DNA from: a virus
Lineage: Duplodnaviria > Caudoviricetes
IMG/VR virus record: IMGVR_UViG_3300011339_000379
Coordinates: 1-29,918 of that record
DNA length: 29,918 bases
Reading direction: 5' to 3' (one strand)
Shown here: one piece after another, positions 1-29,918 of the stretch
Layout of the letters: the number at the start of each line of letters is the position of its first letter
Numbering within the stretch: the stretch's first letter is position 1
Translations under genes and position numbers: made by a program
Notes under the pieces: model-generated
What the model was told of the DNA's origin: nothing
The model's database searches: none
Seen by the model: the letters and a program-made list of their open reading frames with translations, nothing else

Positions 1-362
1 GCCAGGGCCTCGAGGGCCGCGCCACGACCCTGCTGAGCCGCCAAAGCCGCCAACAGCGCATCCATTGCTGACTGGACGCTTGGGGCCACCACGGGCGCGG
101 CGGCGGGTTTGACGTAGGGGCGGGCGGCGGTGTTGAATAGGCCAGCGGGTGCGGTGGGTGTGGGCATGGTTTCGGCGTCCTCGATCTGTTGGGTGTTGGC
201 GATATGGGCGGTGTTGATTCCAAGGTGGCGGGCCACCTCGAGAGCGCGGGCAGCGCCAAGACTCGAGGTGTCAACGCCGTGCAAGCGGCGGTAGGCGGGC
301 CAGTCAGGGTGCGCCGCGATCAAGCGGCGTAGGGTGGCGCGGTCTGCATTGGTCAGGTGCAT
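1..362 (-). CDS. Hypothetical protein, runs off the left window edge; probably the first gene of a leftward operon
   Basis: Not in the ORF track because it has no stop in the window. ATG at 362-360 with AGGA about 10 nt upstream; 120 codons open to the edge (MHLTNADRATLRRLIAAHPDWPAYRRLHG...). Promoter-like sequence upstream. Confidence 0.7.
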   Translation of the reverse strand, partial: MHLTNADRATLRRLIAAHPDWPAYRRLHGVDTSSLGAARALEVARHLGINTAHIANTQQIEDAETMPTPTAPAGLFNTAARPYVKPAAAPVVAPSVQSAMDALLAALAAQQGRGAALEAL

Positions 363-403
363 TTTGGTCAATCCTAGCGGTCAGGGCAACATCGCCCGCC
401 CCC

Positions 404-432
404 TATATATAAAGTCAAGTCAGACCATGCAA
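404..432 (-). promoter_or_regulatory. Putative sigma70-type promoter for the leftward gene
   Basis: Minus strand TTGCAT-N17-TATATA; the spacer contains a CTGACT hexamer. Confidence 0.45.
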
Positions 433-453
433 CAACAATGTTTTATCTAATGA

Positions 454-518
454 TTTCAATAGGTTGTAAGATCGACCCGAAAAAACACCGAAAATAACCA
501 AGCAATTTCAAAGGGTTA
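454..518 (+). promoter_or_regulatory. Two IHF-like sites
   Basis: TTTCAATAGGTTG (454-466) and TTTCAAAGGGTTA (506-518), each one mismatch from WATCAANNNNTTR, with A-tracts between them. Confidence 0.45.
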
Positions 519-552
519 GAACGTCCTCGCGTGCGAGTCCATAATATCACCT

Positions 553-608
553 CGCGCGTGGCTTTATCCCCACGCGCGGTGGCCTATAGCCACCGCCCAC
601 GCTGGCGC
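553..608 (+). repeat. Two-hairpin element, copy 1
   Basis: CGCGCGTGG-ctttatcc-CCACGCGCG, then GCGGTGGC-ctata-GCCACCGC, then ACGCTGGCGC. Homologous to 1585-1639. Confidence 0.8.
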
Positions 609-780
609 GAGTTCGGCGGCGGGCCACACTAGGCTGACGTTTCCAGCCCAAGGGCGAGCAAAGGGGCGTGATGGAACGGGCGGCGGGGCGATAGGGGACA
701 GAGGCCAGCACAAAACCCACAGAATGCGATGTTTGGGTAGGGATAGGGGTAGGCCTAGGCCAAGCGGCTTGGCCCTCTGG

Positions 781-806
781 CGGGCCTCTACGGGCCTCTA
801 CGGGCC
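781..806. repeat. 10-bp tandem repeat CGGGCCTCTA, about 2.6 units
   Basis: Read directly from the sequence. Confidence 0.9.
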
Positions 807-808
807 AT

Positions 809-1034
809 TAGGTTTAGCCTAAGCAATGGATAGGGTGCAAAAGTCAGGCTAGACTAGCACTAATCCAACATTTGGCCCCGATCTGGCCTAAGTAGGCATT
901 GCCTAAGCAAGGCATAGGCCAGACCTATGCAGGCATAGGACTAAGATAGGCCAAGCCTAAGCACCGCATAGGCATGGCCTACACAAGTCAGGGCATGGAT
1001 AGGCAAAGCCTAAGCAAGTCATAGGCTTGGCCTA
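809..1034. repeat. Array of interrupted palindromes TAGGC-N3-GCCTA
   Basis: Perfect copies at 893, 947, 969, 1000, 1022; one-mismatch copies at 809 and 915. Confidence 0.9.
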
Positions 1035-1146
1035 ACCTCTCCCGCCCTCGCCCGCCCTCGCATCACGCGCAAGGCATCAGTCAGCGCGGCGGGCGGCGGG
1101 CCAGTCAGGGCGGCGGGCCAGTCAGGGCCAAGTCAGGGCGGCAAAA

Positions 1147-1164
1147 TGGTTTAACGTTAAACCA
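1147..1164. promoter_or_regulatory. Perfect 18-bp palindrome TGGTTTAACGTTAAACCA, candidate protein-binding site
   Basis: Self-complementary and AT-rich, within GC-rich repeats. Function not shown. Confidence 0.6.
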
Positions 1165-1223
1165 AGTCAGCGATGCGCGGCGTTTAGTCAGGGCCGAGTC
1201 AGGGCAGGTGGAAAGTGCAGCAA

Positions 1224-1236
1224 TATCAAGGGCTTA
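1224..1236 (+). promoter_or_regulatory. IHF consensus site
   Basis: TATCAAGGGCTTA is an exact match to WATCAANNNNTTR, in the same orientation as the sites at 454 and 506. Confidence 0.5.
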
Positions 1237-1375
1237 TGCCGAGTCAGGGCTGACTTTGACGCGCGACCCCCCACGGGGTGGCGGCGGGCGGGGGCAGTTT
1301 TATTTTGACACCCTAACAGGCCGTCCGGCCAAAATTTTTCTTTTTTCCGAAAAATTTCATGCGTTGAGTCATCGG

Positions 1376-1399
1376 TTTGTTAGACGCCCGTCTAACAAA
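1376..1399. repeat. Inverted repeat with 11-bp arms
   Basis: TTTGTTAGACG-cc-CGTCTAACAAA. Confidence 0.85.
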
Positions 1400-1456
1400 G
1401 TCAGCGTGAGTCAGCGTGAGTCAGATCGAGTCAGCGTGAGTCAGCGTGAGTCAGCG
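1399..1456 (+). repeat. 10-bp tandem repeat (AGTCAGCGTG), 6 units
   Basis: AGTCAG at 1399, 1409, 1419, 1429, 1439, 1449; the third unit is the variant AGTCAGATCG. Confidence 0.95.
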
Positions 1457-1484
1457 GCCTCAAAAATTTTTTGCTGCAAAATTT

Positions 1485-1508
1485 TACACTACTAAAAGTA
1501 GTAGTGTA
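1485..1508. repeat. Inverted repeat with 10-bp arms
   Basis: TACACTACTA-aaag-TAGTAGTGTA, flanked by A/T tracts. Confidence 0.85.
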
Positions 1509-1584
1509 GTTTTGGGAGGGCGAAGTCGGACTCAATATCGCGCGCAAGGCTTTATGAACGAACGCGCTATTGCCATATGCCCTA

Positions 1585-1639
1585 TGCGCGAGGCTTTATC
1601 CCCTACGCGCAGTCCACTACAGGTGGACTACGCTGGCGC
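1585..1639 (+). repeat. Two-hairpin element, copy 2
   Basis: TGCGCGAGG-ctttatcc-CCT(a)CGCGCA, then AGTCCAC-tacag-GTGGACT, then ACGCTGGCGC. Confidence 0.8.
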
Positions 1640-1650
1640 TCCGTCCCCAG

Positions 1651-1679
1651 TGGACACACCAACTTTTTGTAGCTATACT
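1651..1679 (+). promoter_or_regulatory. Putative sigma70 promoter for the packaging genes
   Basis: TGGACA-N17-TATACT, followed by a GGAGG RBS and ATG at 1700. Confidence 0.65.
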
Positions 1680-1699
1680 TTTGGCAACTGGAGGGAACC

Positions 1700-2092
1700 A
1701 TGTCAGATAGCCCATTGCCAAACGCCAAGCTGACTGTTGTGCCGCAGTCGCCGGAAGATCAGGTCCGCAAGGCTGCTGTCCACGACAGGTATGCGCTGGA
1801 TGCAGCGAGTGCGAAGTTGCTGAAGGAGAATGGTCGTCGGGCTGTTTTGAAAATGTTCGAGATGCTGAACGACGAGGAGAAGTGGAATGGGATGGGTCCG
1901 CGCAATCAGATGGCGCTGATCGACATGGCGATCACACGAGCCTATGGGCGCGTTGAGACTGTCAGTGCAGAAGCGAAATTGGCTGACTCTACGTCTGAGG
2001 TTGCAGGAGCCTTGCCGCACCATTTGAGGCTACTGGCTGGGACGCTGAACTTGCCAGAATTGCAAGGGGCGAAGTCAGCGAAGAAAGATTGA
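1700..2092 (+). CDS. Putative terminase small subunit
   Basis: 130 aa, strong RBS, first gene of the rightward operon upstream of TerL; helical segment ending 'MAITRAYGRV' resembles small packaging proteins. The function call is largely positional. Confidence 0.55.
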   Translation: MSDSPLPNAKLTVVPQSPEDQVRKAAVHDRYALDAASAKLLKENGRRAVLKMFEMLNDEEKWNGMGPRNQMALIDMAITRAYGRVETVSAEAKLADSTSEVAGALPHHLRLLAGTLNLPELQGAKSAKKD

Positions 2093-2117
2093 CTCGTTCG
2101 CTGTCTTTTCGTATTCT
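2089..2117 (+). promoter_or_regulatory. Putative sigma70 promoter
   Basis: TTGACT-N17-TATTCT overlapping the stop of the preceding gene. Confidence 0.6.
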
Positions 2118-2123
2118 GTCTTT

Positions 2124-2191
2124 GCAGCGGTCCTCCCTGTTGCTCGCAAAGTCCTACGCCCAACCGCCCACAAATGCTAGTTGGGCGTAGG
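2124..2191 (+). ncRNA. Candidate small RNA or structured leader with an anti-SD (UCCUCC) loop
   Basis: GCAGCGG-tcctcc-CTGTTGC stem (two G-U pairs) starts 7 nt after the -10 box; then a perfect 12-bp stem CCTACGCCCAAC/GTTGGGCGTAGG (2153-2191). Confidence 0.4.
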
Positions 2192-2213
2192 CATCCTTCA
2201 GAAAGGCTAGATT

Positions 2214-2570
2214 GTGATCTCTGCCAGTGAGAACTCCAAGAATACGCAGAATGCTATCGACAACTGGATGTTGGGTCCGTTGGTTCCAAGCAATATGCCG
2301 ACTGCCAACAAGGACTATTGGCGCGAATTTGCTGCTGCTACGCTGACTTCTGAGAAAGAAGCGCGGACACATCTTTGCTCAAACTGCGAATACTACGACA
2401 ATACGCCTGAGACAAAAGCAGAGATGCTGGCGATTCCGATGAACAAGTTTGATGTTGGCGCCGGATCACGAGGCTTCTGCACCAAGCTGGACTTCATCTG
2501 CCATGACTTGCGAGTGTGCATAGCGTGGGAGCCGAAAGACTTTGAGGATACGACTGAGGAGATGGACTGA
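2214..2570 (+). CDS. Cys-rich hypothetical protein, possibly metal-binding
   Basis: 118 aa; CSNC...C-x6-C-x5-C-x2-W; its stop overlaps the next ATG. Confidence 0.75.
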   Translation: MISASENSKNTQNAIDNWMLGPLVPSNMPTANKDYWREFAAATLTSEKEARTHLCSNCEYYDNTPETKAEMLAIPMNKFDVGAGSRGFCTKLDFICHDLRVCIAWEPKDFEDTTEEMD

Positions 2571-2731
2571 TGAAGTCAAAAGTTGGCAAAGTCATGCACG
2601 AGTTCAAAGCTGGCAAGCTGCATGGTGGTATTGATCCGAAAGGGCCAAAGAAAGCGCCCATCGTGAAGTCCCGCAAGCAAGCCATCGCCATTGCCTTGTC
2701 TGAGGCAGGGAAGTCGCGGAAAATGAAATGA
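2570..2731 (+). CDS. Small basic protein, DUF6496-like
   Basis: Below the ORF-track cutoff. 53 aa, MKSKVGKVMHEFKAGKLHGG...VKSRKQAIAIALSEAGKS; TGATG coupling and GAGGAG RBS. Confidence 0.85.
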   Translation: MKSKVGKVMHEFKAGKLHGGIDPKGPKKAPIVKSRKQAIAIALSEAGKSRKMK

Positions 2732-2874
2732 AGGGGCTTTACGCCAACATCAACGCGAAGCGTAAACGCATCGAAGCCGGAAGCGGCGAGAAGATGCGGA
2801 AGGTTGGAGCAAAGGGTGCGCCCACTGCTGCTGCCTTCAAGGCTTCTGCAAAGACAGCGAAAAAGCCAAAATGA
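2728..2874 (+). CDS. Small basic conserved phage protein
   Basis: Below the ORF-track cutoff. 48 aa, MKGLYANINAKRKRIEAGSGEKMRKVGAKGAPTAAAFKASAKTAKKPK; ATGA overlaps at both ends; I recognise the motif from aquatic phages. Confidence 0.85.
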   Translation: MKGLYANINAKRKRIEAGSGEKMRKVGAKGAPTAAAFKASAKTAKKPK

Positions 2875-3116
2875 AGAAGCAAGGGCCGTCTTTGTCTGTC
2901 GGACGCGGAGAGAAACTGCCTGTCTCTAAGGGGGCGGGGCTGACTGCAAAGGGCCGTGCAAAGTATAACGCTGCGACTGGCTCGAACCTGAAGCCCCCTG
3001 CTCCTAATCCCAAGACTGACGAAGCAAAAGCCCGCAAGAAGTCTTTCTGTGCGCGGTCGAGTGGCTGGACTGGGGAGCGCGGCAAAGCAGCGCGGAAGCG
3101 GTGGGCGTGTGAGTGA
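2871..3116 (+). CDS. Small basic protein, DUF6321-like
   Basis: 81 aa, GLTAKGRAKYN..TGSNLK.P...RKKSFCAR...RKRW.C; ATGA coupling. Confidence 0.8.
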   Translation: MKKQGPSLSVGRGEKLPVSKGAGLTAKGRAKYNAATGSNLKPPAPNPKTDEAKARKKSFCARSSGWTGERGKAARKRWACE

Positions 3117-4530
3117 AGAAGATGATCTTTACTCTGCCCTAGTCGCGCGGTGTGCTGTTGATCGCTATTTCTTCGTCACTGAGATTCTAGGCGTCGAGAA
3201 AGTCGAAGACTGGCAGCGCGAGACAATGGCTGCTCTCGACAGTGGCGAGACGCGAATTTCGATTAGGTCTGGGAACGGAGTTGGTAAGACAGCCTTGTGT
3301 GCTTGGCTGTCGATCCACTACTTGCTGTTTCGTGATGACGTAAAAATTCCTGTGACTGCTCCGTCCAGTTCGCAGTTGAAAGACGGCCTTATTCCAGAGA
3401 CAAAACGCTGGATCGCCCGACTTCCTGACTTTCTGCGCGTCCAGATTGAGATGACTGAGGACCGCATCCGGCGCACTCCGGGCGGCGACAACAACTTCAT
3501 CTCCTTCCGTACTGCCCGCGCTGACTCGCCTGAAGCCTTGGCTGGTATCCACGCAAGTCATGTGATGGCGATTGTGGACGAGGCGAGCGGTGTGCCGGAC
3601 ATCGTGTTCGAGTTTGCAGAAGGCACAATGTCGTCGGCTGGTTCTATCTTCATCCTGATCGGCAACCCAACGCGACCGACTGGCTACTTCCACAAGACGC
3701 ACTCCATCCTGAAGCACAAATGGTTCACCAAAAAAGTGTCGTCCTTCGACAGTTCTCGCGTTACGCAGGACTTCGTTGACAACATTGCCCTGACTTACGG
3801 CACAGGCTCGAATACCTACCGCTACAAAGTCTTGGGCGAATTTCCTGAAAGCGTAGCCGATACTGTCATCCCAAAGGAGTTGATTGATGGCGCATGGGGC
3901 AGAGACGTTGACCTCCTACGCGGCGCGGAGCGTTTTTGGGGTGTGGACCCCGGACGCGGAGGCGACCCAACAGGCTTTTGCATCAGAGCAGACAACCACG
4001 TTGAAGAACTCATCGAATGGTATGACGCCGACCTCATGCGCGTCACAGGCCGTGTCAAAGAACGCTGGGATAGGACGCCCGACAAAGAGCGCCCAGAATC
4101 TATCTTCGTTGACTCGATTGGTCTGGGCGCTGGCGTGGCTGACCGCCTTCGTGAACTTGGGCTTCCTGCTGTCGATGTTAATGTGGCTGAGTCGCCATCC
4201 ATGAAAGACCGCTTCACGCGGTTGCGGGCGGAATTGTGGTACGCAGTCAGGGAATGGCTGGAGCAGCGCAATGTCGTCTTCCCAAAAGACTTGGATTTGG
4301 CCGAAAAGCTGATGTCGGAACTGGCGGAGCCGCAAGCCATCTTCACATCGACTGGCAAGGCAGATGTCGAGTCAAAAGGCGCGATGAAGCAGCGCGGAGT
4401 CAGATCGCCAAACTTGGCTGACGCATTGTGCCTGACTTTTGCTGGCGGAGGGGCCATTGCAGTAGGTCGCTCCAATGGCCGCAATAGCTGGAAAAAGCCT
4501 CTCCAGTGGTCTGCGCCCGGACTTGTGTGA
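3109..4530 (+). CDS. terL: Terminase large subunit
   Basis: Walker A SGNGVGKT, Walker B MAIVDEASG, coupling motif LIGNP, nuclease motifs WGVDPG and SPNLADAL. Start moved to GTG 3109, which overlaps the upstream gene's end. Confidence 0.96.
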   Translation: MSEEDDLYSALVARCAVDRYFFVTEILGVEKVEDWQRETMAALDSGETRISIRSGNGVGKTALCAWLSIHYLLFRDDVKIPVTAPSSSQLKDGLIPETKRWIARLPDFLRVQIEMTEDRIRRTPGGDNNFISFRTARADSPEALAGIHASHVMAIVDEASGVPDIVFEFAEGTMSSAGSIFILIGNPTRPTGYFHKTHSILKHKWFTKKVSSFDSSRVTQDFVDNIALTYGTGSNTYRYKVLGEFPESVADTVIPKELIDGAWGRDVDLLRGAERFWGVDPGRGGDPTGFCIRADNHVEELIEWYDADLMRVTGRVKERWDRTPDKERPESIFVDSIGLGAGVADRLRELGLPAVDVNVAESPSMKDRFTRLRAELWYAVREWLEQRNVVFPKDLDLAEKLMSELAEPQAIFTSTGKADVESKGAMKQRGVRSPNLADALCLTFAGGGAIAVGRSNGRNSWKKPLQWSAPGLV

Positions 4531-4537
4531 GCCTTCG

Positions 4538-4566
4538 TTGACCAAAAGCTGCCTAACTGGTAGAGT
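4538..4566 (+). promoter_or_regulatory. Putative sigma70 promoter for the head genes
   Basis: TTGACC-N17-TAGAGT in the gap after terL; GGAGG RBS at 4589. Confidence 0.55.
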
Positions 4567-4598
4567 ATCGCAACTGAACCTGTAGCCCGGAGGCCAAA

Positions 4599-4769
4599 AT
4601 GCCCATTCGCGGAGTCAAGAACCCCTTTCCAAAAATCCTTCCTCCCACCAACGGCGGGATGTTCTCTGCAAACGGCTCGCAGAAGATGGACCCTGTGAAG
4701 CAGCCCGCCATCGTCAAAAAGACAATGGCTGAAGCCATGCGTACCAACGGCAAAGTCGGTAAAAGCTAA
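4599..4769 (+). CDS. Hypothetical protein (56 aa)
   Basis: Not in the ORF track. GGAGG RBS; MPIRGVKNPFPKILPPTNGG...; TAATG coupling to the next ORF. Confidence 0.7.
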   Translation: MPIRGVKNPFPKILPPTNGGMFSANGSQKMDPVKQPAIVKKTMAEAMRTNGKVGKS

Positions 4770-4903
4770 TGGCTACTACGATCACGCCGCCCAGCCCGAA
4801 CAACAAGGCCAGCGCGTACTACGCGACGATAAACCATGTGAAACACGCTCTTGTCGCGGAGTCTAAGTCGCAGATTCTTGTGGACATCGTGGACAACCGC
4901 TGA
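4769..4903 (+). CDS. Hypothetical protein (44 aa)
   Basis: Not in the ORF track. MATTITPPSPNNKASAYYAT...; coupled start; ends 15 nt before the portal gene. Confidence 0.6.
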   Translation: MATTITPPSPNNKASAYYATINHVKHALVAESKSQILVDIVDNR

Positions 4904-4918
4904 CTTTGAGGGCAGAAA

Positions 4919-7096
4919 ATGGCTGAAGACATCTGGGGCATCGACGATTCCGTTCCTCCTGCGGAAGATCAGACCATTTCTGTTGATGACGCCGCCCATG
5001 AACTTGGCGCACTGGTCAATACTGCCGTCAATTTCATCGACGAGCAGCTTATGCCCGGATGGGAGACGGCTCAAAAATACTACGATGGCCTGACTGACAT
5101 CCAAACTGTCACTGGCCGCTCCAAAGTCGTGATGACTACAGTCAGGGACGCAATCCGATCTGCCCGTCCGTCCTTGATGCGTATCTTCCTGCAAGCAGAC
5201 ACCATCGTCGAGTTTGTTCCAAACGGCACAAAGTCAGCATCTTTGGCGGCGCAGCAGTCCAAATACGTCAATTCGCTGTTTTTCCGCTCAAACGGCTACC
5301 GCTCTCTCTACGATTGCATCCAAAACTCCATGCTGAAGAAGCTAGGAGTGATGAAATTCTGGTTCGATGACGCCACTGAGGTCAAATACATCGACCTGAC
5401 TGCCATTCCGACCGAGGAACTGGACCGAATCTCCTCTCGTCCTGACGCGATGATTATGAGTGTAGCGCCATCAGAGGCGCAGCCCGTCATTATCTCGCCG
5501 GACGGCACTCAAATCCAACTTTTTGACGCCCAAATCGCACTTTACGTCAAAAACGGCTCAATTCGTGTCGAAAACGTGCCTTTGGAGGAGTTTTTCATCG
5601 ACGAAAACGCCTCTGGCATCGAAGACGCTCGCGTCATCGGCCATCGTCGCCAAATGCGCGTGGGCGATGCCGTTGCAATGGGCCTTCCGTTTGAGGAACT
5701 GGACAACCTCGACACCATCGACCCAGAACTCTACGCAAACGCTGGCGAGTCAGAATATCGCCGTGGCTACATGAAAGTCACAGAGCAAGAGTCGATGGAC
5801 CGCATGATGCGGCTCGTCCTCATCACCGAATGCTACGCCCGCTACGATCTTGACGGCACAGGCATCCCGCAGCTATACCGCTTCTGGCTAGGCGGCACGA
5901 ATTACGAACTTCTACAGCATGAACGCGCTGCACAAATCCCATTCGGCCTAATCTCAATCGACCCAGAACCAAATACTGTCTTTGGTAAGTCGCTTTTCGA
6001 CATTGTGCGCCAAGAACAAGACACGATGACATCGCTCATTCGCGCGACAGTTGACAACGCCCACCTCTCCAACAACCGCCGTCTAGCCGTCCATGACACG
6101 CTCGTGAACATGGATGATGTGCTGAACCCCGCTGTAGGCGCTCCAATTCGTGTGAAAGCAGCAGGACAAATCCAAGAAATTGGGGTTCAGTCCACCATCT
6201 CGTCCATGCTCCCCCTTTTGCAGTTCCTCAAGCAAGACACTGAGCAGAAAGTCGGCATCACTGGCGCTGCAATGGGCATCGACCACGATGCTTTGCAGTC
6301 CACGACCCGCGAAGCCGCCATGAACACGATCCAACTTTCGCAAGGCCAGATCGAAGTCATGGCCCGCAACATCGCAGAAGGTCTGAAGACTGTCTTCAAC
6401 GGCATCCTCAAACTGTCCATGTGGCATATGCCGCGCGAGCAGATCATGGAAGTGAACGGCGATTACGTCCCCGTAGACACCGCCATCTTCGATCCTACGC
6501 TGTATATGCGGGCCAACGTGGGTCTGGGTACTGGAGAGGCTACAGAGCGTCTGGCGGGCCTACAGGGCGTCCTAGCGCAGCAGAAAGAGATTGTGGCTAC
6601 CTTGGGGCCAGCCAACCCCATCGTGACCTACCGCAACATCTACAACACGCTTGAGGACATGACCAAGCTGTACGGCATCTACAACGTCAGCCGCTACTTC
6701 TCGCCCGTCACGCCGGAAGTCGAACAAGTTCTCGCACAGCAAGCCCAACAGGCCGCACAGAACCAGCAGCCTGTGGTTGACCCCGGCACTGCGATGATCG
6801 AAGCCGAAAAGATCAAGGCTCAACTCAAAGAGCGCGAACTTTACGTCACCTCCATGCTGGAGGAGCGCCGCCTTGCGCTGGATAACCAAATCCGCGCACT
6901 GGAATTTGCCGCCAAAGACGACCTAGAGCGCGACAAGATGGCCCAAGACCTCGAAATCGCTGCCTCCAAGTCAGCTATCGACAAGCAGAAGATCGCTTTG
7001 GAGCAAGAAAAGATTCGGTTAGCACCCTACGAAGCGCCGACCGCCGAACCGCTGACTCCGCCGACCGCACCAGCAGAGGCAGCGCAAAATGGTTGA
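4919..7096 (+). CDS. Portal protein
   Basis: 725 aa after terL; N-terminal 'KYYDG...GRSKVV...VRDAI...PSLMRIF' typical of podovirus portals; Q-rich coiled-coil C-terminus. Confidence 0.92.
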   Translation: MAEDIWGIDDSVPPAEDQTISVDDAAHELGALVNTAVNFIDEQLMPGWETAQKYYDGLTDIQTVTGRSKVVMTTVRDAIRSARPSLMRIFLQADTIVEFVPNGTKSASLAAQQSKYVNSLFFRSNGYRSLYDCIQNSMLKKLGVMKFWFDDATEVKYIDLTAIPTEELDRISSRPDAMIMSVAPSEAQPVIISPDGTQIQLFDAQIALYVKNGSIRVENVPLEEFFIDENASGIEDARVIGHRRQMRVGDAVAMGLPFEELDNLDTIDPELYANAGESEYRRGYMKVTEQESMDRMMRLVLITECYARYDLDGTGIPQLYRFWLGGTNYELLQHERAAQIPFGLISIDPEPNTVFGKSLFDIVRQEQDTMTSLIRATVDNAHLSNNRRLAVHDTLVNMDDVLNPAVGAPIRVKAAGQIQEIGVQSTISSMLPLLQFLKQDTEQKVGITGAAMGIDHDALQSTTREAAMNTIQLSQGQIEVMARNIAEGLKTVFNGILKLSMWHMPREQIMEVNGDYVPVDTAIFDPTLYMRANVGLGTGEATERLAGLQGVLAQQKEIVATLGPANPIVTYRNIYNTLEDMTKLYGIYNVSRYFSPVTPEVEQVLAQQAQQAAQNQQPVVDPGTAMIEAEKIKAQLKERELYVTSMLEERRLALDNQIRALEFAAKDDLERDKMAQDLEIAASKSAIDKQKIALEQEKIRLAPYEAPTAEPLTPPTAPAEAAQNG

Positions 7097-8326: not shown

Positions 8327-8332
8327 ACTATC

Positions 8333-9328
8333 ATGGCAGTTGATGCACAAACCATCGAAACGTATGACAACACTGTCATCCGTGAAGACCTCGAACAGCA
8401 GTACACGATGATCTCCCCAGAGGAGACGCCGTTCCAGACTGCTATCGGTATCGGCCCCTCGGCAACCAACACTTATCACGAGTGGACTGTTGTTGAACTG
8501 GCGACCCCCTCGACCTCGAACCGCGTCATCGAAGGTGACGATGCTCCGGGCGAAGATGACGGCACTCTGGGTAAGCGTTTTGGGAACTACACCCAGATCA
8601 GCGACAAGATCGTCTCGGTGTCTAACACCTCGGAAGCTGTTGATGCAGCCGCCGAAAACGTTCAGCGTCTGGCCGCTCAAGTCGCCATCAAGCTGAAGGA
8701 AATGAAGCGCGATATGGAGTCCATGCTGCTCCAGAACATCGCTGCTGCCGCTGGCTCGTCGGGTTCTGCCCGTCAGGCTGCTGGTCTGCCCGCTTGGCTG
8801 CGGACCAACATCGTTCTGGGTTCGGCGGGCGCTGCGCCCACTCTGTCCGGCACGACCGCTGGTTATCCTAACGCTGCCCTGACTCCCGGAACGGCTGTGG
8901 CCCTGACTGAAGTTCGTTTGAACAACGTCATCCAGTCGTGCTGGACGGAAGGCGCTACTCCGTCGATCATCATGGTCAACGCGAACAACAAGCGAGTCAT
9001 CTCGCAAGTGTTCACGGGCAACTCGACGCGCTACAAGGACGCCATTGACAAGCGTCTGACTGCCGCGATTGACGTCTATGACTCTGACTTTGGCGAACTT
9101 TCGGTTGTCCCGAACAGATTCCAGCAAACCACTGCATCGAACAACTACTCGGTGTATGTGCTGGACCCCGAATACGCGAGCCTCTGCTTCTTGGAGACTC
9201 CGCGTCAGACGGAACTGGCTCAGACTGGACACGCAAAGCGCCGCATGGTGCATTGCGAATACACTCTGAAAATCTCCAACGAGAAAGCCCACGGCGCGGT
9301 TCACGCGACCACTGGCGCTGCATCGTAA
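8333..9328 (+). CDS. Major capsid protein (DUF5309/SU10-like)
   Basis: 331 aa; 'IREDL....MISPEETPF', 'HEW', 'GNYTQI..K', 'KEMKRDME', 'DVYDSDFG.L.VVPNRF'; followed by a strong hairpin. Confidence 0.92.
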   Translation: MAVDAQTIETYDNTVIREDLEQQYTMISPEETPFQTAIGIGPSATNTYHEWTVVELATPSTSNRVIEGDDAPGEDDGTLGKRFGNYTQISDKIVSVSNTSEAVDAAAENVQRLAAQVAIKLKEMKRDMESMLLQNIAAAAGSSGSARQAAGLPAWLRTNIVLGSAGAAPTLSGTTAGYPNAALTPGTAVALTEVRLNNVIQSCWTEGATPSIIMVNANNKRVISQVFTGNSTRYKDAIDKRLTAAIDVYDSDFGELSVVPNRFQQTTASNNYSVYVLDPEYASLCFLETPRQTELAQTGHAKRRMVHCEYTLKISNEKAHGAVHATTGAAS

Positions 9329-9336
9329 TCCTGACT

Positions 9337-9358
9337 GGGGCGGCGGCAACGCCGCCCC
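9337..9358 (+). terminator. GC-rich hairpin after the capsid gene (weak terminator or mRNA stabiliser)
   Basis: GGGGCGGCG-gcaa-CGCCGCCCC with a GNRA loop; no U-tract follows. Confidence 0.6.
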
Positions 9359-9379
9359 TACCTCCAACATAGGTGCATT

Positions 9380-9610
9380 ATGGCCGACGAACCTGAAGTT
9401 ACTGCTGAAGTCGAAAAGTCAGCAGAACCCGCGCCCAAGAAACGCGCAAAACCCGTCACAGCAAAATACGAAGTCATCAATGGCGCAATCAGCCCCAATG
9501 GTGGCAGCATGGAAGACCTCGTACATCCGGGTTCCATTGTAGAATTGCCCACTGACTTGGCGATCCACTACAATAAATTGGGCTATCTGAAGCCCTACAT
9601 TGAGGAATAA
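9380..9610 (+). CDS. Hypothetical protein (76 aa)
   Basis: AGGTG RBS; fits the operon. Confidence 0.75.
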   Translation: MADEPEVTAEVEKSAEPAPKKRAKPVTAKYEVINGAISPNGGSMEDLVHPGSIVELPTDLAIHYNKLGYLKPYIEE

Positions 9611-9611
9611 T

Positions 9612-9914
9612 ATGCGTTCTCCGTTCTCGCCCATCGTTGAAAAGCTGTATCTCAACCCAAACGGGACGGAGTTTCATTTCGTTAAAACGCAAAACGTGCA
9701 GGGCATCCTAGAAGCAGCCAAGGACGCAGCAGAAATTCTGCGTCCTAACACTGGCCCTGCTGGCGGCAAATACCTCGGTACAGTGCCTGTCCTGATCGCC
9801 CAGCAGTGGGCAAAGGAATGTGGCGCAGCAGTAGGCTCGCGTGAGTGGGCAACTTATGCTAAAACGAAGCTACGCGATGGAACGTGGTCCAGACTCAGGG
9901 TGCATCAGAAATGA
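9612..9914 (+). CDS. Hypothetical phage protein (100 aa)
   Basis: GAGGA RBS before ATG 9612; ATGA overlap with the adaptor gene. Confidence 0.75.
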   Translation: MRSPFSPIVEKLYLNPNGTEFHFVKTQNVQGILEAAKDAAEILRPNTGPAGGKYLGTVPVLIAQQWAKECGAAVGSREWATYAKTKLRDGTWSRLRVHQK

Positions 9915-10537
9915 ATTACGCTGCTTTCAAAGCCTACCTAGCGCGGTTTGTTTGGCGCAACGGCGACACAGTGTTCGAGGCAGACCTCGACAACATGGTC
10001 AACATGGCCCATGCCCGCCTGAACCGCGATCTGCGTATTCAGCGCATGATCGTCGTCGCAAGCACCAGCCTGACTTCTGACATGATCTCCTTGCCTACCA
10101 ATTATTTGGAAATGCGGACGATCACCTCAGACAGCCCTCCTGCCCCCATGCAGTACGTCAGCCCATACGAGCGCGAGCGGATCAAACTCGCTAACGCCAG
10201 CACGTTCCAGCCGATCTACACGATCACTGGGGACGCGATCTTTTTTGTCGGTCCGATGTCTGCTGCGGACAATCCGGCCAGATCAGTCATCCTGACTTAC
10301 TACAGCAAAATCCCTGACTTTGCGACGACCAACTCCTCGTGGCTGGCCGACGAGTACCTCGACCTCTACACCTACGCCGTCCTGCGCCACACGCCAGCTT
10401 ATCTCAAAGACGACGAGCGCGTTGCCCTGTGGAAGAACGAGTACGACGAGACACTCGCCTCTGTGGTCGCTGCTGAAGCTGGTCGCCGCTACGCCGGAAG
10501 CCCACTTCGCGCACCGATGCCGGGAGTTGTCGCATGA
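9911..10537 (+). CDS. Head-tail adaptor (tail tubular A-like)
   Basis: 'AHARLNRDLRI', 'LPTNYLEMR', 'YYSKIP', 'WL..Y.DLY.YA.L...AYLKDDER...W'; position after capsid. Confidence 0.75.
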   Translation: MNYAAFKAYLARFVWRNGDTVFEADLDNMVNMAHARLNRDLRIQRMIVVASTSLTSDMISLPTNYLEMRTITSDSPPAPMQYVSPYERERIKLANASTFQPIYTITGDAIFFVGPMSAADNPARSVILTYYSKIPDFATTNSSWLADEYLDLYTYAVLRHTPAYLKDDERVALWKNEYDETLASVVAAEAGRRYAGSPLRAPMPGVVA

Positions 10538-12285: not shown

Positions 12286-12291
12286 TAATAT

Positions 12292-13809: not shown

Positions 13810-13820
13810 GGTGGCAACAG

Positions 13821-15691: not shown

Positions 15692-15700
15692 GGTAAGATT

Positions 15701-17425: not shown

Positions 17426-17446
17426 CAGGCATCAAGGAGTTCTGCC

Positions 17447-20641: not shown

Positions 20642-20651
20642 GGAGAGCATC

Positions 20652-21350: not shown

Positions 21351-21360
21351 AGGAAACGAC

Positions 21361-23997: not shown

Positions 23998-25982
23998 TGG
24001 CTGGTCCTACCTATGAAGAACTGATGGCTGCGGCCACAAAACTAAAAGATGCTGGAAACGCTGACGGCGCGAGAAAGATGCTGGAGGCAGCAGTCCGCGT
24101 CAGGCAAAACCAGCCTAAGTCTTTCTGGGAAAAGACCAAAGAGACTGTCGGGAAGGACATTCAGCAACTTGGCGATGTCGCCCTTATGGCAGGGCGCGGC
24201 CTGACTATCGGGCAGTCACCGAACATCCAAGGTGCAATCAATGTAATGCTTGGCGGCGACTTTGAGACTGGTCGTCAGAACCAACTTGCGGCGGAGGGCG
24301 CAGCATCTGAGCGTCTTGGCTGGGCTGGTATGCTTCCAGAAATTGCTGGCGGTATGGCGACTGGTGGCGCAGAAATGGCAGCAATCAAAAAACTTGCTGG
24401 TCCACAAGCAGTAGAAAAACTAGGTGGGTGGCTTGGCTCTGCCTTGACTGGTGCAGCAGAAGGCAGCGTTTACGCGCAAGGGCAAGGCATGGATACCACT
24501 TATGGTGGCTTGCTTGGCGCTGGCGGCGCTCTGGCTGGCAAAGGCATTATGACTGGCCTTGGTAAAATCGACGACTGGATTTCTCCAAAATTGAATGTCC
24601 AACAACGCGCCGCTAACGCGATCACGCAGCAGATGCAGCGTAGTGGTGTAGCCCCAGAAGATGTTGCTACCACTTTGCAAGGAGAGATGGCGCGGCTTGG
24701 TCCTGACGCTACTTTAGCAGATGTTGATATGCTGCGGCCTCGTGTGGTCAAAGCAGTCAACCCCATGTCTTCAACAGAGGCTGTAGCGTCTGCTTTCAAC
24801 ACGGCGACTTCGCCTCAACGGAACATTGCTGACTTGGCTCTGACTGAGTGGGATAACATCTTCCAGACCCCACGCAGTATCAATGAAAAAGGCGCAGAAA
24901 CTAAACTTACTTTGGATCAAGCGAAAGCGATCTATGAGCAAGGGCTAAACAACAGCCCTGTGAAGTTTAAAGGGGACACGTTTGAAAAGATCGTGACTGG
25001 CGCATTTGGCACAAAGGCCATTGCCGGAATGAAGTCTGCTCGTGACGCAATCATAGACGCTATCAAGATCAAGACGCCTCTTAAAGATGATGGAAAAGGC
25101 GGCTTTATCCGCGAAAGTATGACTCCACGCGATCTGCTCGACATCAAAGATGCAGTCGATGCTCGTATCAAAGACACAACTGACGGCGCAGCAGACGCGA
25201 AAACCAAGCGCCATCTAAGCGACATCTCAAGGCAGATTAACGAGACGCTAAAAGGCTACGTCCCAGAAATCAAAACTGCCGCAGACATCTATTCTGGGCA
25301 GTATTCTTTCGACGCCGCTTACAATAATGGTTACGAACTTGGGGAAAAAGGACTCAAGGGACAGTCTCTGACTGACTTGCGAGAAATGATTGCTGGTTTC
25401 ACACCGCAGCAAAAACAGGCTTACGCAGAAGGCTGGCGCAAAGCTAAATTTGAAGGCGTCGATGCCGCAGGAGCCGAAAAAGAGTTTGCTCGCATTGGGC
25501 CGACTAAATCCAACGCTGACTTGGAAATTATCGACTCTCTGTTTGGTGCTGGAACTGGGCAGAAGTTTGTCGATGTCAGCAAGCGCATTAACGCTATATC
25601 GGCCACAAACAAAGACTTCTTAAATCGCTGGAAAACTGTGAGTGGCGAAGCAGCAAATCCGAAAGGTGATTCGCTCAACCCGCTACGAATGGGCGCGGAC
25701 TTACTAACTATGGCCGCGCAAACGGCTGAACGCAAAATGATGGGCGGCGCGTTCCAAGGGGCTTTTGGCCGCGAAGCGCGGGCTATGGGCGCTCGTGGCA
25801 ATGCTCTGACTAACGACCAAATTGTCGAGTGGGCAACGCGAACAGGACAGTCTGTCGATGATGCCATGCGCGAAATTGAGCAGTATATGGCTCGCTCTAA
25901 ACCGCGTCCTATAAACCCAGAACTGATGCGTTCTGGGATACAGACAGGCACGGCGATTGAACGTGCTATGCGGGACCGCTAG
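23997..25982 (+). CDS. Large internal virion / ejection protein
   Basis: 661 aa, Gly/Ala-rich N-terminal part, AGGAGG RBS, last gene of the rightward module. Confidence 0.65.
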   Translation: MAGPTYEELMAAATKLKDAGNADGARKMLEAAVRVRQNQPKSFWEKTKETVGKDIQQLGDVALMAGRGLTIGQSPNIQGAINVMLGGDFETGRQNQLAAEGAASERLGWAGMLPEIAGGMATGGAEMAAIKKLAGPQAVEKLGGWLGSALTGAAEGSVYAQGQGMDTTYGGLLGAGGALAGKGIMTGLGKIDDWISPKLNVQQRAANAITQQMQRSGVAPEDVATTLQGEMARLGPDATLADVDMLRPRVVKAVNPMSSTEAVASAFNTATSPQRNIADLALTEWDNIFQTPRSINEKGAETKLTLDQAKAIYEQGLNNSPVKFKGDTFEKIVTGAFGTKAIAGMKSARDAIIDAIKIKTPLKDDGKGGFIRESMTPRDLLDIKDAVDARIKDTTDGAADAKTKRHLSDISRQINETLKGYVPEIKTAADIYSGQYSFDAAYNNGYELGEKGLKGQSLTDLREMIAGFTPQQKQAYAEGWRKAKFEGVDAAGAEKEFARIGPTKSNADLEIIDSLFGAGTGQKFVDVSKRINAISATNKDFLNRWKTVSGEAANPKGDSLNPLRMGADLLTMAAQTAERKMMGGAFQGAFGREARAMGARGNALTNDQIVEWATRTGQSVDDAMREIEQYMARSKPRPINPELMRSGIQTGTAIERAMRDR

Positions 25983-28061
25983 TTAGCCCTCTAACTTGAA
26001 GATGCGGAAGAATGTGACCAGAGGAGAGCCGTAGCGGTTCTCCTTTGTTTCCACCATCACGTTGAAGCCGCCAGCGACATTCTTGCCCGTCGATGGGAAC
26101 AGCCCCAGCAAGAACGAACTCAAGTCAGCAGCGTCCGCCCGCATCTTCGATGCCTTCGAATACAAATTCGTGTCCTTCAGCGCCTCTTTCAGATGCTCGT
26201 GCATCCGCTTCAGCGGCACAACGCCCGTGCCGTAGGCCGCGACAGCGGCATAGAGCGGCTGATACATCATTTCGATCCGCAGCATCTCGCTTGCAGCATC
26301 CGCTGCCTCGTTCACTGACTTGGCCCCCGGAAGCAGCACAGGCGCTGTAATCTCGTAGCCCTGATTGCTGATGCCCAGTTTCTCAGTCACGATATCGAAC
26401 AGGAACGTCTTGTCGTCGTCGATAGACCGCGCCATCAGGATTTTCAGTTCGAGTTGGTCAGTCTCCTCGTTCTTGGTCAAAGTCAGCAGCGTGTCAGGTT
26501 CGGCCTGAATGTTGCTCGAACCGCGCGGCCCGCTGCCGTTCTTGGTGTTGTGGTGGATGATGACCACTGCTGCCTTGATGCCAGCGTCTTTGATCTTGGC
26601 GATGACATCGAACACCGCTGATGTGTCTTCCACGCTGTTCTGGTCGCCTCCGGGCATTGCCTTAGTCAGCGTGTCGATGACGATGACGCCGATGTGGTTC
26701 TCGCCCTTTTTCAGCCACCACGCATCCGCTGCCTTGATCTGCTCCACGAGATTAAGTCGCGCCGCTTCGTCCAGAAGATTGACGCTTTCTTCGACAGTGT
26801 AGAACGGAAACGTTTTCTCATCTGTGTATTTCTCGTCCGCTGGGTCGTGATACTTCTTCCACGCTACCAGACGTTTCCTGATCGCTGTCTGGCTTTCAAG
26901 AGCGAAATACAGCACGGGGCGGCGCTCTGTGACTGTCAGCGTGTCGTCGAAATTCAGCCCAGCAGCGATGTGCATAGCCAAGGTCTGACTGACCAGCGTC
27001 TTCCCTGCCTTGGGATCAGCAGAAATCAGCGTGACTTCGCTCGCATGGTAGATCGGGTGCATGATGAACTCCTCAGTCAGAACGTCTAGCTTTTCGTGGC
27101 CGAAATAGCCGCGCTTGCCCGCAAACGGAAAGTCGTCGCCGTAGGAAGCCGCTGTCACCACGGGCAACTGCGCGTTGTCGATCCGTGTGGCCGGAAACAT
27201 AGTCGCGGCCATTTCCTTCAGCCAGACAGGGGCGGCATCGCGCAGCCCGTCCGTCTTCGAGACTGTGTTGAACTTCGAGTGGCCGCTGCCGACGATGCGC
27301 GTCAACTCGCCGCTCTTGTCCGCCATGATAGGCTCCCAGCGGTCGTGCCGTGGGTGCTGCGGGTTGGCGGCGACTGAAGCGTTCATCAGCCCCAGCAGCG
27401 TGGCTTGCACAGACTCCATAGGCTCGCCAGCAGACGACATCTTGGCCGCAAGCTGGGTCAGACTGTCATGGAAGTCATCCCCCGTCAGGATGTTCTTCTT
27501 TAGCGCCTCTATGGGCGTGGCCGCTTGGGCTACCCTAGCAGAACGGAGATGGTCTAGGAGGCCCGTAGAGGCCGCTACAGCGCCTTCGCTGACTACAGTG
27601 TAACCCGGAGAGGGGGGAACGACGATGTAGCCCCCCTCGCCCTTTACCTCGACGCCCTTGGACGGCTTGCAGTTGGGGAACTCTGTGTCGGACGAGAAGA
27701 TGTAGTGCCGACCGCCGTTCCGTGTGGCGTGGACCCGTGTCTTGGGCATGAAGCCTGACTGCGTTAGCCAAGCGACATACTTCTTCGCCGCCTCGCCAGC
27801 CTCGCCGTCCTTGTAGGTATCGGCGTCGATGGCGAACAAGCCAGAGGCTTCTCCCATCCTTGCGCCGATACCATGCAGACGGCTACCAGCATCCAAAAAC
27901 ATTTGCCGGATGCGATCTGGATCAGTCGTAGCATCGTAGAAGCCATTCTGGGTCAGTGGCCGCTTGTCGTCGCCTGTCGGAAACACTGGGACGCCTAAGT
28001 CTGCCCAGTCCAGCGCAGCTTCGATCAAGTCAGCAGATGTGATGACTTGGTGCATATTCAT
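25983..28061 (-). CDS. Primase-polymerase (Prim-Pol) fused to an AAA_25/RepA-like helicase
   Basis: N-terminus VPVFP, KRPL, IDAD, TRNGGRHYIF, GGYIVVPPS; C-terminus Walker A ADPKAGKT, VLYFALE, Walker B IVIDTL, IIHH, GPRGSS. Confidence 0.9.
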   Translation of the reverse strand: MNMHQVITSADLIEAALDWADLGVPVFPTGDDKRPLTQNGFYDATTDPDRIRQMFLDAGSRLHGIGARMGEASGLFAIDADTYKDGEAGEAAKKYVAWLTQSGFMPKTRVHATRNGGRHYIFSSDTEFPNCKPSKGVEVKGEGGYIVVPPSPGYTVVSEGAVAASTGLLDHLRSARVAQAATPIEALKKNILTGDDFHDSLTQLAAKMSSAGEPMESVQATLLGLMNASVAANPQHPRHDRWEPIMADKSGELTRIVGSGHSKFNTVSKTDGLRDAAPVWLKEMAATMFPATRIDNAQLPVVTAASYGDDFPFAGKRGYFGHEKLDVLTEEFIMHPIYHASEVTLISADPKAGKTLVSQTLAMHIAAGLNFDDTLTVTERRPVLYFALESQTAIRKRLVAWKKYHDPADEKYTDEKTFPFYTVEESVNLLDEAARLNLVEQIKAADAWWLKKGENHIGVIVIDTLTKAMPGGDQNSVEDTSAVFDVIAKIKDAGIKAAVVIIHHNTKNGSGPRGSSNIQAEPDTLLTLTKNEETDQLELKILMARSIDDDKTFLFDIVTEKLGISNQGYEITAPVLLPGAKSVNEAADAASEMLRIEMMYQPLYAAVAAYGTGVVPLKRMHEHLKEALKDTNLYSKASKMRADAADLSSFLLGLFPSTGKNVAGGFNVMVETKENRYGSPLVTFFRIFKLEG

Positions 28062-28591
28062 TGCTTCGACCCAATGTCTTCCCAGTATTTTGCCAACAGC
28101 AGCGACTCAGCGCGGTTGTGGTCAAGTTTGCGGGCGAAATAGCCAGCATCGTCCGGCCACGTTTCGATGGCACGAAGCCGTGCTGGCTCCTTGGGGTTCT
28201 GGAGCGTGACAGGGAGTTTCATCGCTGGCTTCCAGACTGTCGGCGGCACTAGCTGGTAGGGTAGCTTCAGCCCAGCGCAGATGCCTTCCGTCAGGAACAT
28301 CGACCCGACAAACGGGACGCCAGCACTCAGGCTCTCGTTAGGGCGGATCGTGACGCGCTCAATCACGACCATCGGCTGATAGTTATACTCAGCAGCCAGC
28401 GCCTTCGCGGTCCGCAAGATCGTGGTGATAAGGGCGGCTTGGTTGATCCAAGAGGCGGTCTTGCGCCCTGCCTTGACGATCTGCACAGCGACTTGTTCGC
28501 CGCTGTAGCATTTGTATGGTTTGCCTTCCATCAGGATGCCGATAGTCAGCGGCGATCCGGGGTCAACTCCGATTGTAAACATAGTGGTCAC
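28058..28591 (-). CDS. RuvC-like Holliday junction resolvase
   Basis: IGVDPG, VVIERV, P..WK, DHNRAESLLLA; AAGGAG RBS. Confidence 0.85.
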   Translation of the reverse strand: MTTMFTIGVDPGSPLTIGILMEGKPYKCYSGEQVAVQIVKAGRKTASWINQAALITTILRTAKALAAEYNYQPMVVIERVTIRPNESLSAGVPFVGSMFLTEGICAGLKLPYQLVPPTVWKPAMKLPVTLQNPKEPARLRAIETWPDDAGYFARKLDHNRAESLLLAKYWEDIGSKQ

Positions 28592-28686
28592 TCCTTAGCA
28601 GAACTGTGATACTGATCTTTTTGTAGGCATCTGTGAAGCCACACAATATGGGGTGGTCAACCCCTAGCAGCCACAAGATGTAGTGT

Positions 28687-29918
28687 TTACGGCTTCGCCG
28701 CCCAAGATTGGCCGACTGCGCTTTCCGACAGATTGGCGGTTTCGGCGTTGGGGAAAATGTCCAGCCAAGCCTGACGCATCTCCTCCACCATGATTTCCCG
28801 CAGTTCTTCGCCATGCCCTGTCTCCGCCAGCATCAGCAATTCGTCGTGGATCGACGCCAGCATCCGCGACTTGAACGGCAGTTCGTAGACTTTGAAACTC
28901 ATGCGCGTGACGGCGCGATACATCACATCGGCGGCAGCGCCTTGGATGGGGTAGTTTGACGCCACGGGCATCGACCGCTCGTTCTTGTGAACGTAGACAG
29001 TGCGCCCAGACTTGATCGGCAGCAGCCCTGTGGCGTTCATCTGATCGAACATCTGGTAGCGCAGCGCATAGGCGTAGGGATACCGCGCCGCCCACTTATC
29101 GACGTATTCCGCCGCCTCTCCGTCAGAACAGCGCAGCACCATAGCCAGAGCGGCGTTGCCAGCGCCGTAGGTAAGCTGGAAGCTAAATGCCTTGGCCTTG
29201 GACCGCATCTCTTTAGCCCGTGGGTCTTTGGCCTTTAGGCGGGCCTTGAAGTCCTTGGGATCGACACGGAACAGCGTGATAGCTGATTCTGCGTGAACGT
29301 CCCCAAAGATCACATCCTGCTTTAGCTGTGGATCGTTGCTGACTTCCGCCAAGACGCGCAGTTCGATGCCGCTGTAGTCGGCCAGCACCATCTCTGTGTC
29401 CGGCGGGGCGATGAAGGACCGCCGCACCATAGGATTGCGCGGGATATTCTGAAGGTTTGGGTTCGATGACGAATAGCGGCCTGTGATGGCTTGGGCGATG
29501 TTGAAGCGCCCGTAGACGCGCCCTGCCAGCCTCTGCTTGTTCAGCAGCACTTCGCCGTAGGTGCTTAAGTATTTGTCTGCCCGATTGAAGACCATCAGCG
29601 CGGCGAGCCAGCGCGAGAATGGGTAGGGCGATCTGAAGGACGCCTGACGCAGTTGCTTGCGGTCAGTCTGGAGTTGCTCTGACTTATCAGTTTTCGGCCA
29701 CGCCTTTAGACTTGTCTCGTCCATGACAGTCTTGATGAAGTCAGAGAGTTGCTTTTTTGAGCGAAGGTTCGCAATCGTGTCTTCTGGGGTGTATTGGCGC
29801 AAGACCTTCTCAGCCACATCGCGGCGCAGCGACCACATCTTAATCAGACCGCTGTGATGCTCCTCGTCGATGCTCATGCCTGTGTCTTCCATCTCCGCCG
29901 TGCCGCGCCATGCGTCAT
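28687..29918 (-). CDS. polA: Family A DNA polymerase, N-terminus cut by the window edge
   Basis: TGRYSSSNPNLQNIPR, motif A VLADYSGIELR, motif B RSKAKAFSFQLTYG, NYPIQGAAAD, motif C IHDEL; the frame stays open upstream of ATG 29892 to the edge. Confidence 0.96.
   Translation of the reverse strand, partial: DAWRGTAEMEDTGMSIDEEHHSGLIKMWSLRRDVAEKVLRQYTPEDTIANLRSKKQLSDFIKTVMDETSLKAWPKTDKSEQLQTDRKQLRQASFRSPYPFSRWLAALMVFNRADKYLSTYGEVLLNKQRLAGRVYGRFNIAQAITGRYSSSNPNLQNIPRNPMVRRSFIAPPDTEMVLADYSGIELRVLAEVSNDPQLKQDVIFGDVHAESAITLFRVDPKDFKARLKAKDPRAKEMRSKAKAFSFQLTYGAGNAALAMVLRCSDGEAAEYVDKWAARYPYAYALRYQMFDQMNATGLLPIKSGRTVYVHKNERSMPVASNYPIQGAAADVMYRAVTRMSFKVYELPFKSRMLASIHDELLMLAETGHGEELREIMVEEMRQAWLDIFPNAETANLSESAVGQSWAAKP

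Follow-up and report, generated by a model that had tools for sequence, protein, structure and literature searches.

A lineage-specific AGTCAG word in a freshwater podophage clade and the N-domain of an early AAA+ ATPase as its proposed reader

Throughout a 29,918-nucleotide stretch of viral DNA (IMG/VR record IMGVR_UViG_3300011339_000379, hereafter the window), the asymmetric hexamer AGTCAG and its reverse complement CTGACT are present in marked excess, and comparison with related genomes established AGTCAG as a selected word on both strands across a phage clade. The window is a portion of the genome of a freshwater podophage that encodes an SU10-type portal and capsid, PolA, a Prim-Pol/AAA_25 primase-helicase and RuvC. 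Among the genomes examined, the lineage-specific word co-varies with the N-terminal domain (N-domain) of an AAA+ ATPase, the first early protein to be made. From this correlation, we propose that AGTCAG would be the binding site of that N-domain, by which the ATPase and the DUF7192 protein next to it would be held on phage rather than host DNA, an explanation to which we assign about equal chances of being right and wrong.

AGTCAG is selected on both strands

Exact counting gave 57 copies of AGTCAG and 68 of CTGACT, 125 in total, at positions 68 to 29739.

68..29744, both strands: dispersed AGTCAG/CTGACT words, 125 copies, one per ~240 bp

The original prediction, made from the sequence alone, had put the enrichment at about 8-fold, with some 120 copies; the excess stands, but its size comes down to about 5-fold against a codon-aware null. 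Markov models of order 0, 3 and 4 predicted 14.2, 45 and 89 copies, the last (z 3.8) being high because 5-mers already soak up the signal. The 31 genes contain 101 copies, versus 19.1 by synonymous-codon shuffling (maximum, 34 in 300 shuffles) and 27.2 if the shuffling also keeps the next base (maximum, 38 in 300); when the null additionally barred 135 hexamers avoided in the window (both strands counted), 20.0 copies were expected and 96 observed (maximum, 33 in 60 samples). With the excess surviving these codon nulls, the suggestion of a DNA-level signal overlaid on the coding sequence is upheld. The motif had also been said to occur in several reading frames, and indeed all five usable frames are enriched, 4- to 10-fold and on both strands. 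Likewise, the scarcity of the variant CTGACC/GGTCAG had been correctly estimated, at 16 copies. CTG ACT codes 40 of the 84 Leu-Thr pairs, and 96 of 229 synonymous opportunities for AGTCAG/CTGACT are taken, versus 15 of 227 for GGTCAG. AGGCAG is a weaker variant (44 versus 14.2 expected), and the one-mismatch variants are at or above the null, without depletion.

Sense AGTCAG exceeds its null 7-fold and sense CTGACT 4.4-fold, an orientation bias that equals codon cost. The strand distribution in the window has no polarity and includes a 3.85-kb stretch without the word on one strand; sites in the window were not enriched upstream of gene starts, and no even spacing was found there (P 0.34 and 0.25). 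Extension of the motif, a check named in the original prediction, was carried out across 620 coding sites and yielded no longer consensus, hidden motif or partner half-site. Of the two outcomes by which the original prediction said it would be refuted, loss of the excess under codon nulls did not occur, as shown above, and neither did a lack of conservation at synonymous positions: comparison with four relatives shows third-position differences within sites in 11/121, 17/105, 21/85 and 23/91 cases (0.09, 0.16, 0.25 and 0.25), about half the rate seen elsewhere (1160/4970, 1230/4786, 1601/3643 and 1646/3837; 0.23, 0.26, 0.44 and 0.43). Sites do turn over, with ~54 sites in aligned genes of subclade B, 24 to 27 of them shared.

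All 67 clade loci, which overlap one another and hence are not independent, carry AGTCAG/CTGACT at 2.26 to 5.39 per kb, compared with at most 0.97 per kb in 82 outside loci. No such genome-wide flood was found in any unrelated phage or Rhodobacteraceae genome among those tested, and a literature search, which did not cover the ATPase link or the word of phage phiM5 (see below), returned no report of an AGTCAG/CTGACT word. In a PolA tree, the window and subclades A and B cluster together (99/97), L024 is their sister (99/98), and G001, G002, G003 and L121 come next; no PolA relative was found among the entries of the genome contigs database. Relatives of the window phage have contigs of ~41 kb, and the window phage is phiM5-like.

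The word co-varies with the N-domain of an early ATPase

The best correlate of the word, absent from the candidates listed in the original prediction, lies at the left edge of the window.

3..362, minus strand: MoxR/CbbQ-type AAA+ ATPase, first early gene, 5' part, cut by the window edge (orthologue L050:1054-2232)

The full-length orthologue matches AAA_5 (E 2e-12) and, weakly, CbbQ_C (E 0.02); the neighboring gene matches DUF7192 only (E 2e-11), a family that we take to be von Willebrand factor A (VWA)-like. The helical N-domain of ~55 amino acids (window residues 1 to 55) is the proposed reader of AGTCAG.

The best cultured match to the ATPase, at 50% identity, is in Sinorhizobium phage phiM5 (MF074189.1). 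The N-domains of the two proteins are 40% identical over 54 amino acids (E 6e-8; score 98, shuffle maximum 42), and phiM5 is flooded with a word close to that of the window: TGTCAG occurs 148 times and TGACAG 158 times, versus 14.6 expected for each (TGWCAG, 306 versus 29). Across positions 1 to 44005 (locus L294), there are 364 TGWCAG-type matches in 44 kb, or 8.3 per kb, and TGWCAA is in ~5-fold excess, with TGTCAA at 110 versus 20. The annotated 357-bp terminal repeat of phiM5 contains 8 word matches, with an array at its end, and the same G-A-C-run element as the window. The two phages have in common a terminal repeat (probable in the window phage) between the ATPase and the terminase large subunit (TerL), a homologous N-domain, a word flood (TGWCAR in phiM5) and an array beside the G-A-C-run element, whereas they differ in primase, single-stranded-DNA-binding protein (SSB) and polymerase lineage, in the integrase present in phiM5 and in the first base of the word. 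Genes in common are those for TerL (48%), capsid (45%), portal, helicase (26%) and RuvC; phiM5 has no match for the Prim-Pol, the Prim-Pol C-terminal domain, the SSB-like protein, the exonuclease, the ribbon-helix-helix (RHH) protein or protein X of the window phage. As a separate observation, the phiM5 annotation marks a small open reading frame (ORF) within the ATPase gene (L294 42460-42657) as detected in the particle proteome, so that the ATPase region may be packaged.

The sister clade (L024) uses TGNCAG (TGCCAG, 70 versus 19; TGGCAG, 40 versus 17). Relatives with dissimilar N-domains have dissimilar words: words unrelated to AGTCAG were found in G001, G002, L121, L288, L291 and L293, namely TCCCC-N6-GGGGA (34 copies), TCCC-N8-GGGA (49 copies), CCYA-N2-TRGG (22 copies), GTTTAAAC, TTCTAGAA and CCGAGC, and the ATPase N-termini of these six, as well as those of phages Kudefre, CS266P3 and LP-114, match that of the window at shuffle level only. 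Octadecabacter phage DB virus 2, which has the closest cultured portal, has neither the ATPase nor a flood. Seventeen loci from the ATPase scan (L277-L293), 15 of them from a single clade, have only the ATPase in common with the window phage by tblastn, apart from a weak PolA match in L291; the top word is GTTTAA or CTAGAA in 13 of the 14 analyzed and CCGAGC in the remaining one. A z of at least 7.5 was reached by 6 of 11 ATPase loci, most of which represent one clade, and by 4 of 42 unrelated loci (those at z>=7.5 and 3-fold).

Several points weigh against the ATPase as reader. The support is wholly correlative, and it comes from only about six independent lineages. Neither Pfam nor PHROG gave a match to the N-domain. 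The sister contig lacks the N-terminus of its ATPase, so the link between word and N-domain does not extend to the sister. LP-114 bears the ATPase but no flood (top z 4.9), the flood of CS266P3 is weak, and that of Kudefre is moderate and strand-biased (40-kb parts in all three cases). Finally, the likeness to phiM5 extends to TerL, capsid and an alphaproteobacterial host, and because these are shared too, a terminase or host factor could account for it.

Among the ATPase-bearing but otherwise unrelated loci (L277-L292; L291; L293), GTTTAAAC recurs every 600 to 900 bp, or else TTCTAGAA (41 versus 3) or CCGAGC is found; by eye, the ATPase N-terminus is SAP/HeH-like in L291 and zinc-ribbon-like in L293. 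Gordonia phage Kudefre (L295 1-40000) carries nine copies of the palindrome GTAGC-N4-GCTAC and a strand-biased excess of CTTAGC/CTAAGC.

Phased arrays at a probable terminal repeat

Early and late arms are separated by a non-coding region with two arrays of the word, an inverted pair, a G-A-C-run element and A-tracts.

1009..1388, no strand: probable direct terminal repeat, from a depth step and the position of the phiM5 repeat
1079..1247, plus strand: AGTCAG array, 8 copies, partly 10- to 11-bp phased, present in both subclades
1242..1255, no strand: inverted pair AGTCAG-N2-CTGACT, also in L050 and L033
1265..1272, plus strand: conserved G-A-C-run element adjoining the array, shared with phiM5, L030, L050, L053, L056 and L069
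1291..1398, no strand: A-tract, AT-richer spacer (AT 56%, versus 38 to 43% in the arrays)
1399..1454, plus strand: six AGTCAG with an exact 10-bp period

Positions 1009-1388 probably form a direct terminal repeat. Contig depth there is 12.8, versus 6.0 to 7.9 in the flanks (a weak signal from one data set, filed twice), and this single step is the only direct evidence of a terminus in the contigs; the annotated phiM5 repeat occupies the same place relative to the ATPase and TerL, with its G-A-C-run element ~40 bp from the end. Of 65 short gaps in the arrays of ten relatives, 44 measure 10 to 11 bp. Phased AGTCAG triplets were present in 87 viral loci, 80 of which were analyzed; only the six clade members among them are flooded, while two further loci passed the filter at a mere 0.8 to 1.6 per kb. 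Because phased triplets were thus also found in 74 unrelated viral loci, the arrays alone are weak proof, a further point against the ATPase reading.

Conservation does not extend to an array ahead of the second early promoter, where subclade B has a different repeat unit. In subclade A only, a GC-rich tandem array of variable copy number, with CTGACT, lies just upstream of a sigma70-like promoter (L002:1-340, L004:1290-1800). In some subclade B genomes, an inserted HNH endonuclease separates the conserved end element from the gene for the terminase-small-subunit (TerS)-like protein (L043:2941-3513, L046:2723-3271).

Alternative readers and origins of the word

Two further products of the window come into consideration as readers.

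1700..2092, plus strand: putative TerS-like protein, so labeled from its position and a motif
25983..28061, minus strand: Prim-Pol/AAA_25 primase-helicase with variable C-terminal domain

Among the candidates of the original prediction, a protein-binding site fits best, a methylation target of the phage is unsupported, no methyltransferase having been found among the proteins scanned, and a primase site is weakened. If the terminase, through its small or large subunit, read the word, the terminal-repeat arrays would be pac-like and the dispersed copies would bias packaging toward phage DNA; at the probable end of the genome, the arrays do flank the A-tract spacer and the G-A-C-run element, and TerL is 48% identical to that of phiM5. 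However, the TerS-like protein has no tblastn match in phiM5, the phages with GTTTAAAC and TTCTAGAA have no head or terminase match to the window phage, and packaging requires few sites, not 125; we consider this reading unlikely. Another early DNA-binding protein acting like a stoperator repressor, either a MazE-like RHH protein (L002:2168-2629) or the clade-specific protein X (L002:1626-2171), strikes us as improbable. While each of the 20 clade sequences has the RHH strand residues G-L-x-Q-V-R, which differ in G001-G004 and L121, and while all 13 metagenome loci carrying X are flooded and X resembles HNH N-domains (probability 82%), neither protein is detectable in phiM5, X is missing from the sister operon, G001-G003 and L121, and the predicted fold of the RHH candidate (pLDDT 87) has no significant PDB match. 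A quite improbable reading makes the word a priming or iteron site of the Prim-Pol-helicase. NrS-1 primase sites (PMC8718748) bear on this reading, and the arrays around an AT-rich spacer recall the Staphylococcus aureus pathogenicity island (SaPI) origins served by PriRep (10.64898/2026.10.17.759575). The C-terminal domain of the Prim-Pol is lineage-variable (60% identity in the clade, 13 to 24% outside), without Pfam or PDB support, and the palindromes of the wider family are evenly spaced in G002 (coefficient of variation 0.51, P<0.0002) and L121 (P 0.003), though not in G001. Against it, phiM5 has nearly the same word and no detectable homologue of the window Prim-Pol, for which reason a primase site is weakened; the GTTTAAAC phages also have no match to it, the distant PolA relatives L126-L149, which share the replication module, have no such word (these loci may stop short of the ATPase region), and polarity is lacking, with the 3.85-kb gap on one strand.

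The evidence points to alphaproteobacterial hosts, and a factor of such a host might read the word, as a Chi-like signal of AddAB, as a methylase site, orphan or BREX-type, from which the phage profits or as a -35-like decoy. AGTCAG matches the format NNNCAG, with A at position 5; matches to the SSB-like protein all come from alphaproteobacterial phages, and a family member lies inside a Rhodobacter metagenome-assembled genome (G006); the abundant TGTCAA of phiM5 is the reverse complement of what we take to be the -35 consensus. In G105 and its closest relatives, AGTCAG stands at 0.8 to 1.9 times a control word, and the G105 genes (179 kb) contain 72 copies versus 42. On the other hand, across 251 genomes from the same family as the Rhodobacter assembly the word occurs at ~0.4 per kb or less, mostly below the control (table inspected by eye), G105 shows no strand polarity across 500 kb (100 versus about 93), the 74 unrelated viral loci that have phased triplets all lack a flood, TTGACT is unenriched in the window (14 versus 12), and related phages have quite different words. 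The rarity of the word in genomes of this family makes a host reader less likely, although the true host may differ from the bacteria examined, and we regard such a reader as unlikely overall. Least probable of all, and already largely refuted, is that the excess arose neutrally, from restriction-site avoidance, codon-pair bias or HIP1-like mutational drive: many restriction-type words are avoided, and such avoidance partly accounts for ATCGAC, but an avoidance artefact was rejected by the avoidance-constrained null (20.0 versus 96), one-mismatch variants are undepleted, sites diverge slowly and the phased arrays are conserved.

Protein X is a clade-conserved protein of 181 amino acids (L002:1626-2171) with two repeats like HNH-endonuclease N-domains, forming ~19 real clusters at 50% identity; searches of 401 bacterial genomes and of cultured phages did not turn it up, and its predicted model (pLDDT 91) had no significant PDB match, the best Z for X and the RHH protein being 4.1. 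The RHH candidate, for which an Atlas search gave a single MazE-like lead (0.80), consists of a MazE-like RHH N-terminus on a helical bundle and, in L002:2168-2629 and its homologues in G001-G004 and L121, adjoins the SNF2 helicase in every family member. Separately, AGTCAG stands at 1.4 to 1.9 times the control word in the related Rhodobacteraceae G105, G260, G262 and G265, non-polar in G105.

A proposed explanation

In the explanation that we favor, the N-domain of the ATPase would bind double-stranded AGTCAG; the 10- to 11-bp phasing and an orientation set by codon cost alone fit a binder of double-stranded DNA. Loading of the ATPase would take place at the early end, on the phased array within the probable terminal repeat, and the dispersed copies would hold it on phage DNA. 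From these anchors, the MoxR-type pair might then remodel, remove or inactivate host proteins acting on the genome as it enters or replicates; this step, drawn by analogy with bacterial MoxR pairs, is the weakest, and we consider it doubtful. A bolder alternative would have the ATPase ratchet the genome into the cell.

More broadly, the AAA+ ATPases annotated in phages as "CobS/porphyrin biosynthesis" may, together with their partners, constitute a widespread self-recognition machine, in which a swappable N-domain reads a lineage-specific word placed by selection every 0.1 to 1 kb and the motor, made first, grips its own genome to ratchet it in or guard it; this we put forward tentatively, leaning somewhat against it. 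Early AAA+ genes annotated as "porphyrin biosynthesis" are common in phages and have, to our knowledge, no known job, and genome-wide word floods, so far without a reader, would become linked to them. If the proposal is true, phages mark their own DNA through sequence, not modification, and a reader would be supplied for some word floods in other phages. phiM5 on Sinorhizobium meliloti offers a cultured and harmless test system, in which the domain has 55 residues and the word 6 bp.

Comparison with known systems

McrB-type AAA+ proteins have swappable N-terminal DNA-recognition domains, and the ATPase shares with them the AAA_5 motor and a variable N-terminal domain proposed to choose the target; here, however, the partner is DUF7192 and there is no McrC nuclease, and what would be recognized is an unmodified word of the phage itself, enriched rather than avoided. 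MoxR-type AAA+/VWA pairs (RavA-ViaA, CbbQ-CbbO and NorQ-NorD, as well as phage "CobS" annotations) remodel proteins. They resemble the present pair in the AAA_5 and weak CbbQ_C matches of the ATPase and in the adjacent partner gene, but the known pairs act on proteins, while a DNA word is proposed here; we know of no MoxR-type pair that recognizes a DNA word. Chi sites, DNA uptake sequences and HIP1 are host-chromosome signals that, like AGTCAG, occur in genome-wide excess over coding sequence at synonymous positions. AGTCAG, in contrast, showed no such excess in 251 genomes of the candidate host family, which may not be that of the true host, and no polarity over 500 kb of G105, and the word shifts between phage lineages; moreover, HIP1-type words are palindromes with depleted one-mismatch variants, whereas AGTCAG is asymmetric, with variants at or above the null. 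For a BREX or Type IIG/III target, a cognate methyltransferase and methylation of A5 would be expected, and no methyltransferase was found among the phage proteins scanned. A primase recognition site differs as well, since AGTCAG, judging from phiM5 and the absence of polarity, tracks neither the primase nor the lagging strand.

In lineage specificity, the AGTCAG system works most like the stoperators of Cluster A mycobacteriophages, which number 20 to 30, are 13 bp long, follow the direction of transcription and bind an immunity repressor (PMC6550527; PMC9283540). Common to both are many asymmetric sites genome-wide, a lineage-specific consensus and co-variation with a phage protein; here, in contrast, there are 125 six-mers per 30 kb, their orientation reflects codon cost only, and the protein feature with which they co-vary is a domain of an AAA+ ATPase. 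The PriRep/Rep iterons of SaPIs are hexamers on opposite strands limited to an origin of ~300 bp (10.64898/2026.10.17.759575). They, too, are hexamer repeats flanking an AT-rich stretch, but in the window both arrays are on the plus strand and the word is genome-wide. A winged-helix domain at the helicase C-terminus would also be expected of a SaPI-type origin, and the Prim-Pol C-terminal domain gave no Pfam or PDB support for one. The AGTCAG system departs from stoperators, McrB and SaPI origins in a defining feature of each.

Further observations in the family

No integrase was found in near-complete relatives of the window phage, and among the scanned proteins there were no integrase or repressor families, though DNA-binding ORFs without a family label are present. 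The relatives G001, G002, G003 and L121 carry palindromes about once per kb. A hairpin or RNA reading of these palindromes was rejected, covariation being inconsistent and a G-U bias absent. They look like operators, many standing just before gene starts, in G001 (L114, L115, L056), G002 (L116, L069, L117), G003, L121, L055, L058, L066 and L164. The sister phage L024 encodes beta-clamp-like and cytosine-methylase-like ORFs (2655-3968 and 9269-9946; labels by eye), which were not seen in the AGTCAG clade. Across the whole window (1-29918), many restriction-type words are almost totally avoided, including CCWGG, ACCGT, GAGCT and most 6-bp palindromes.

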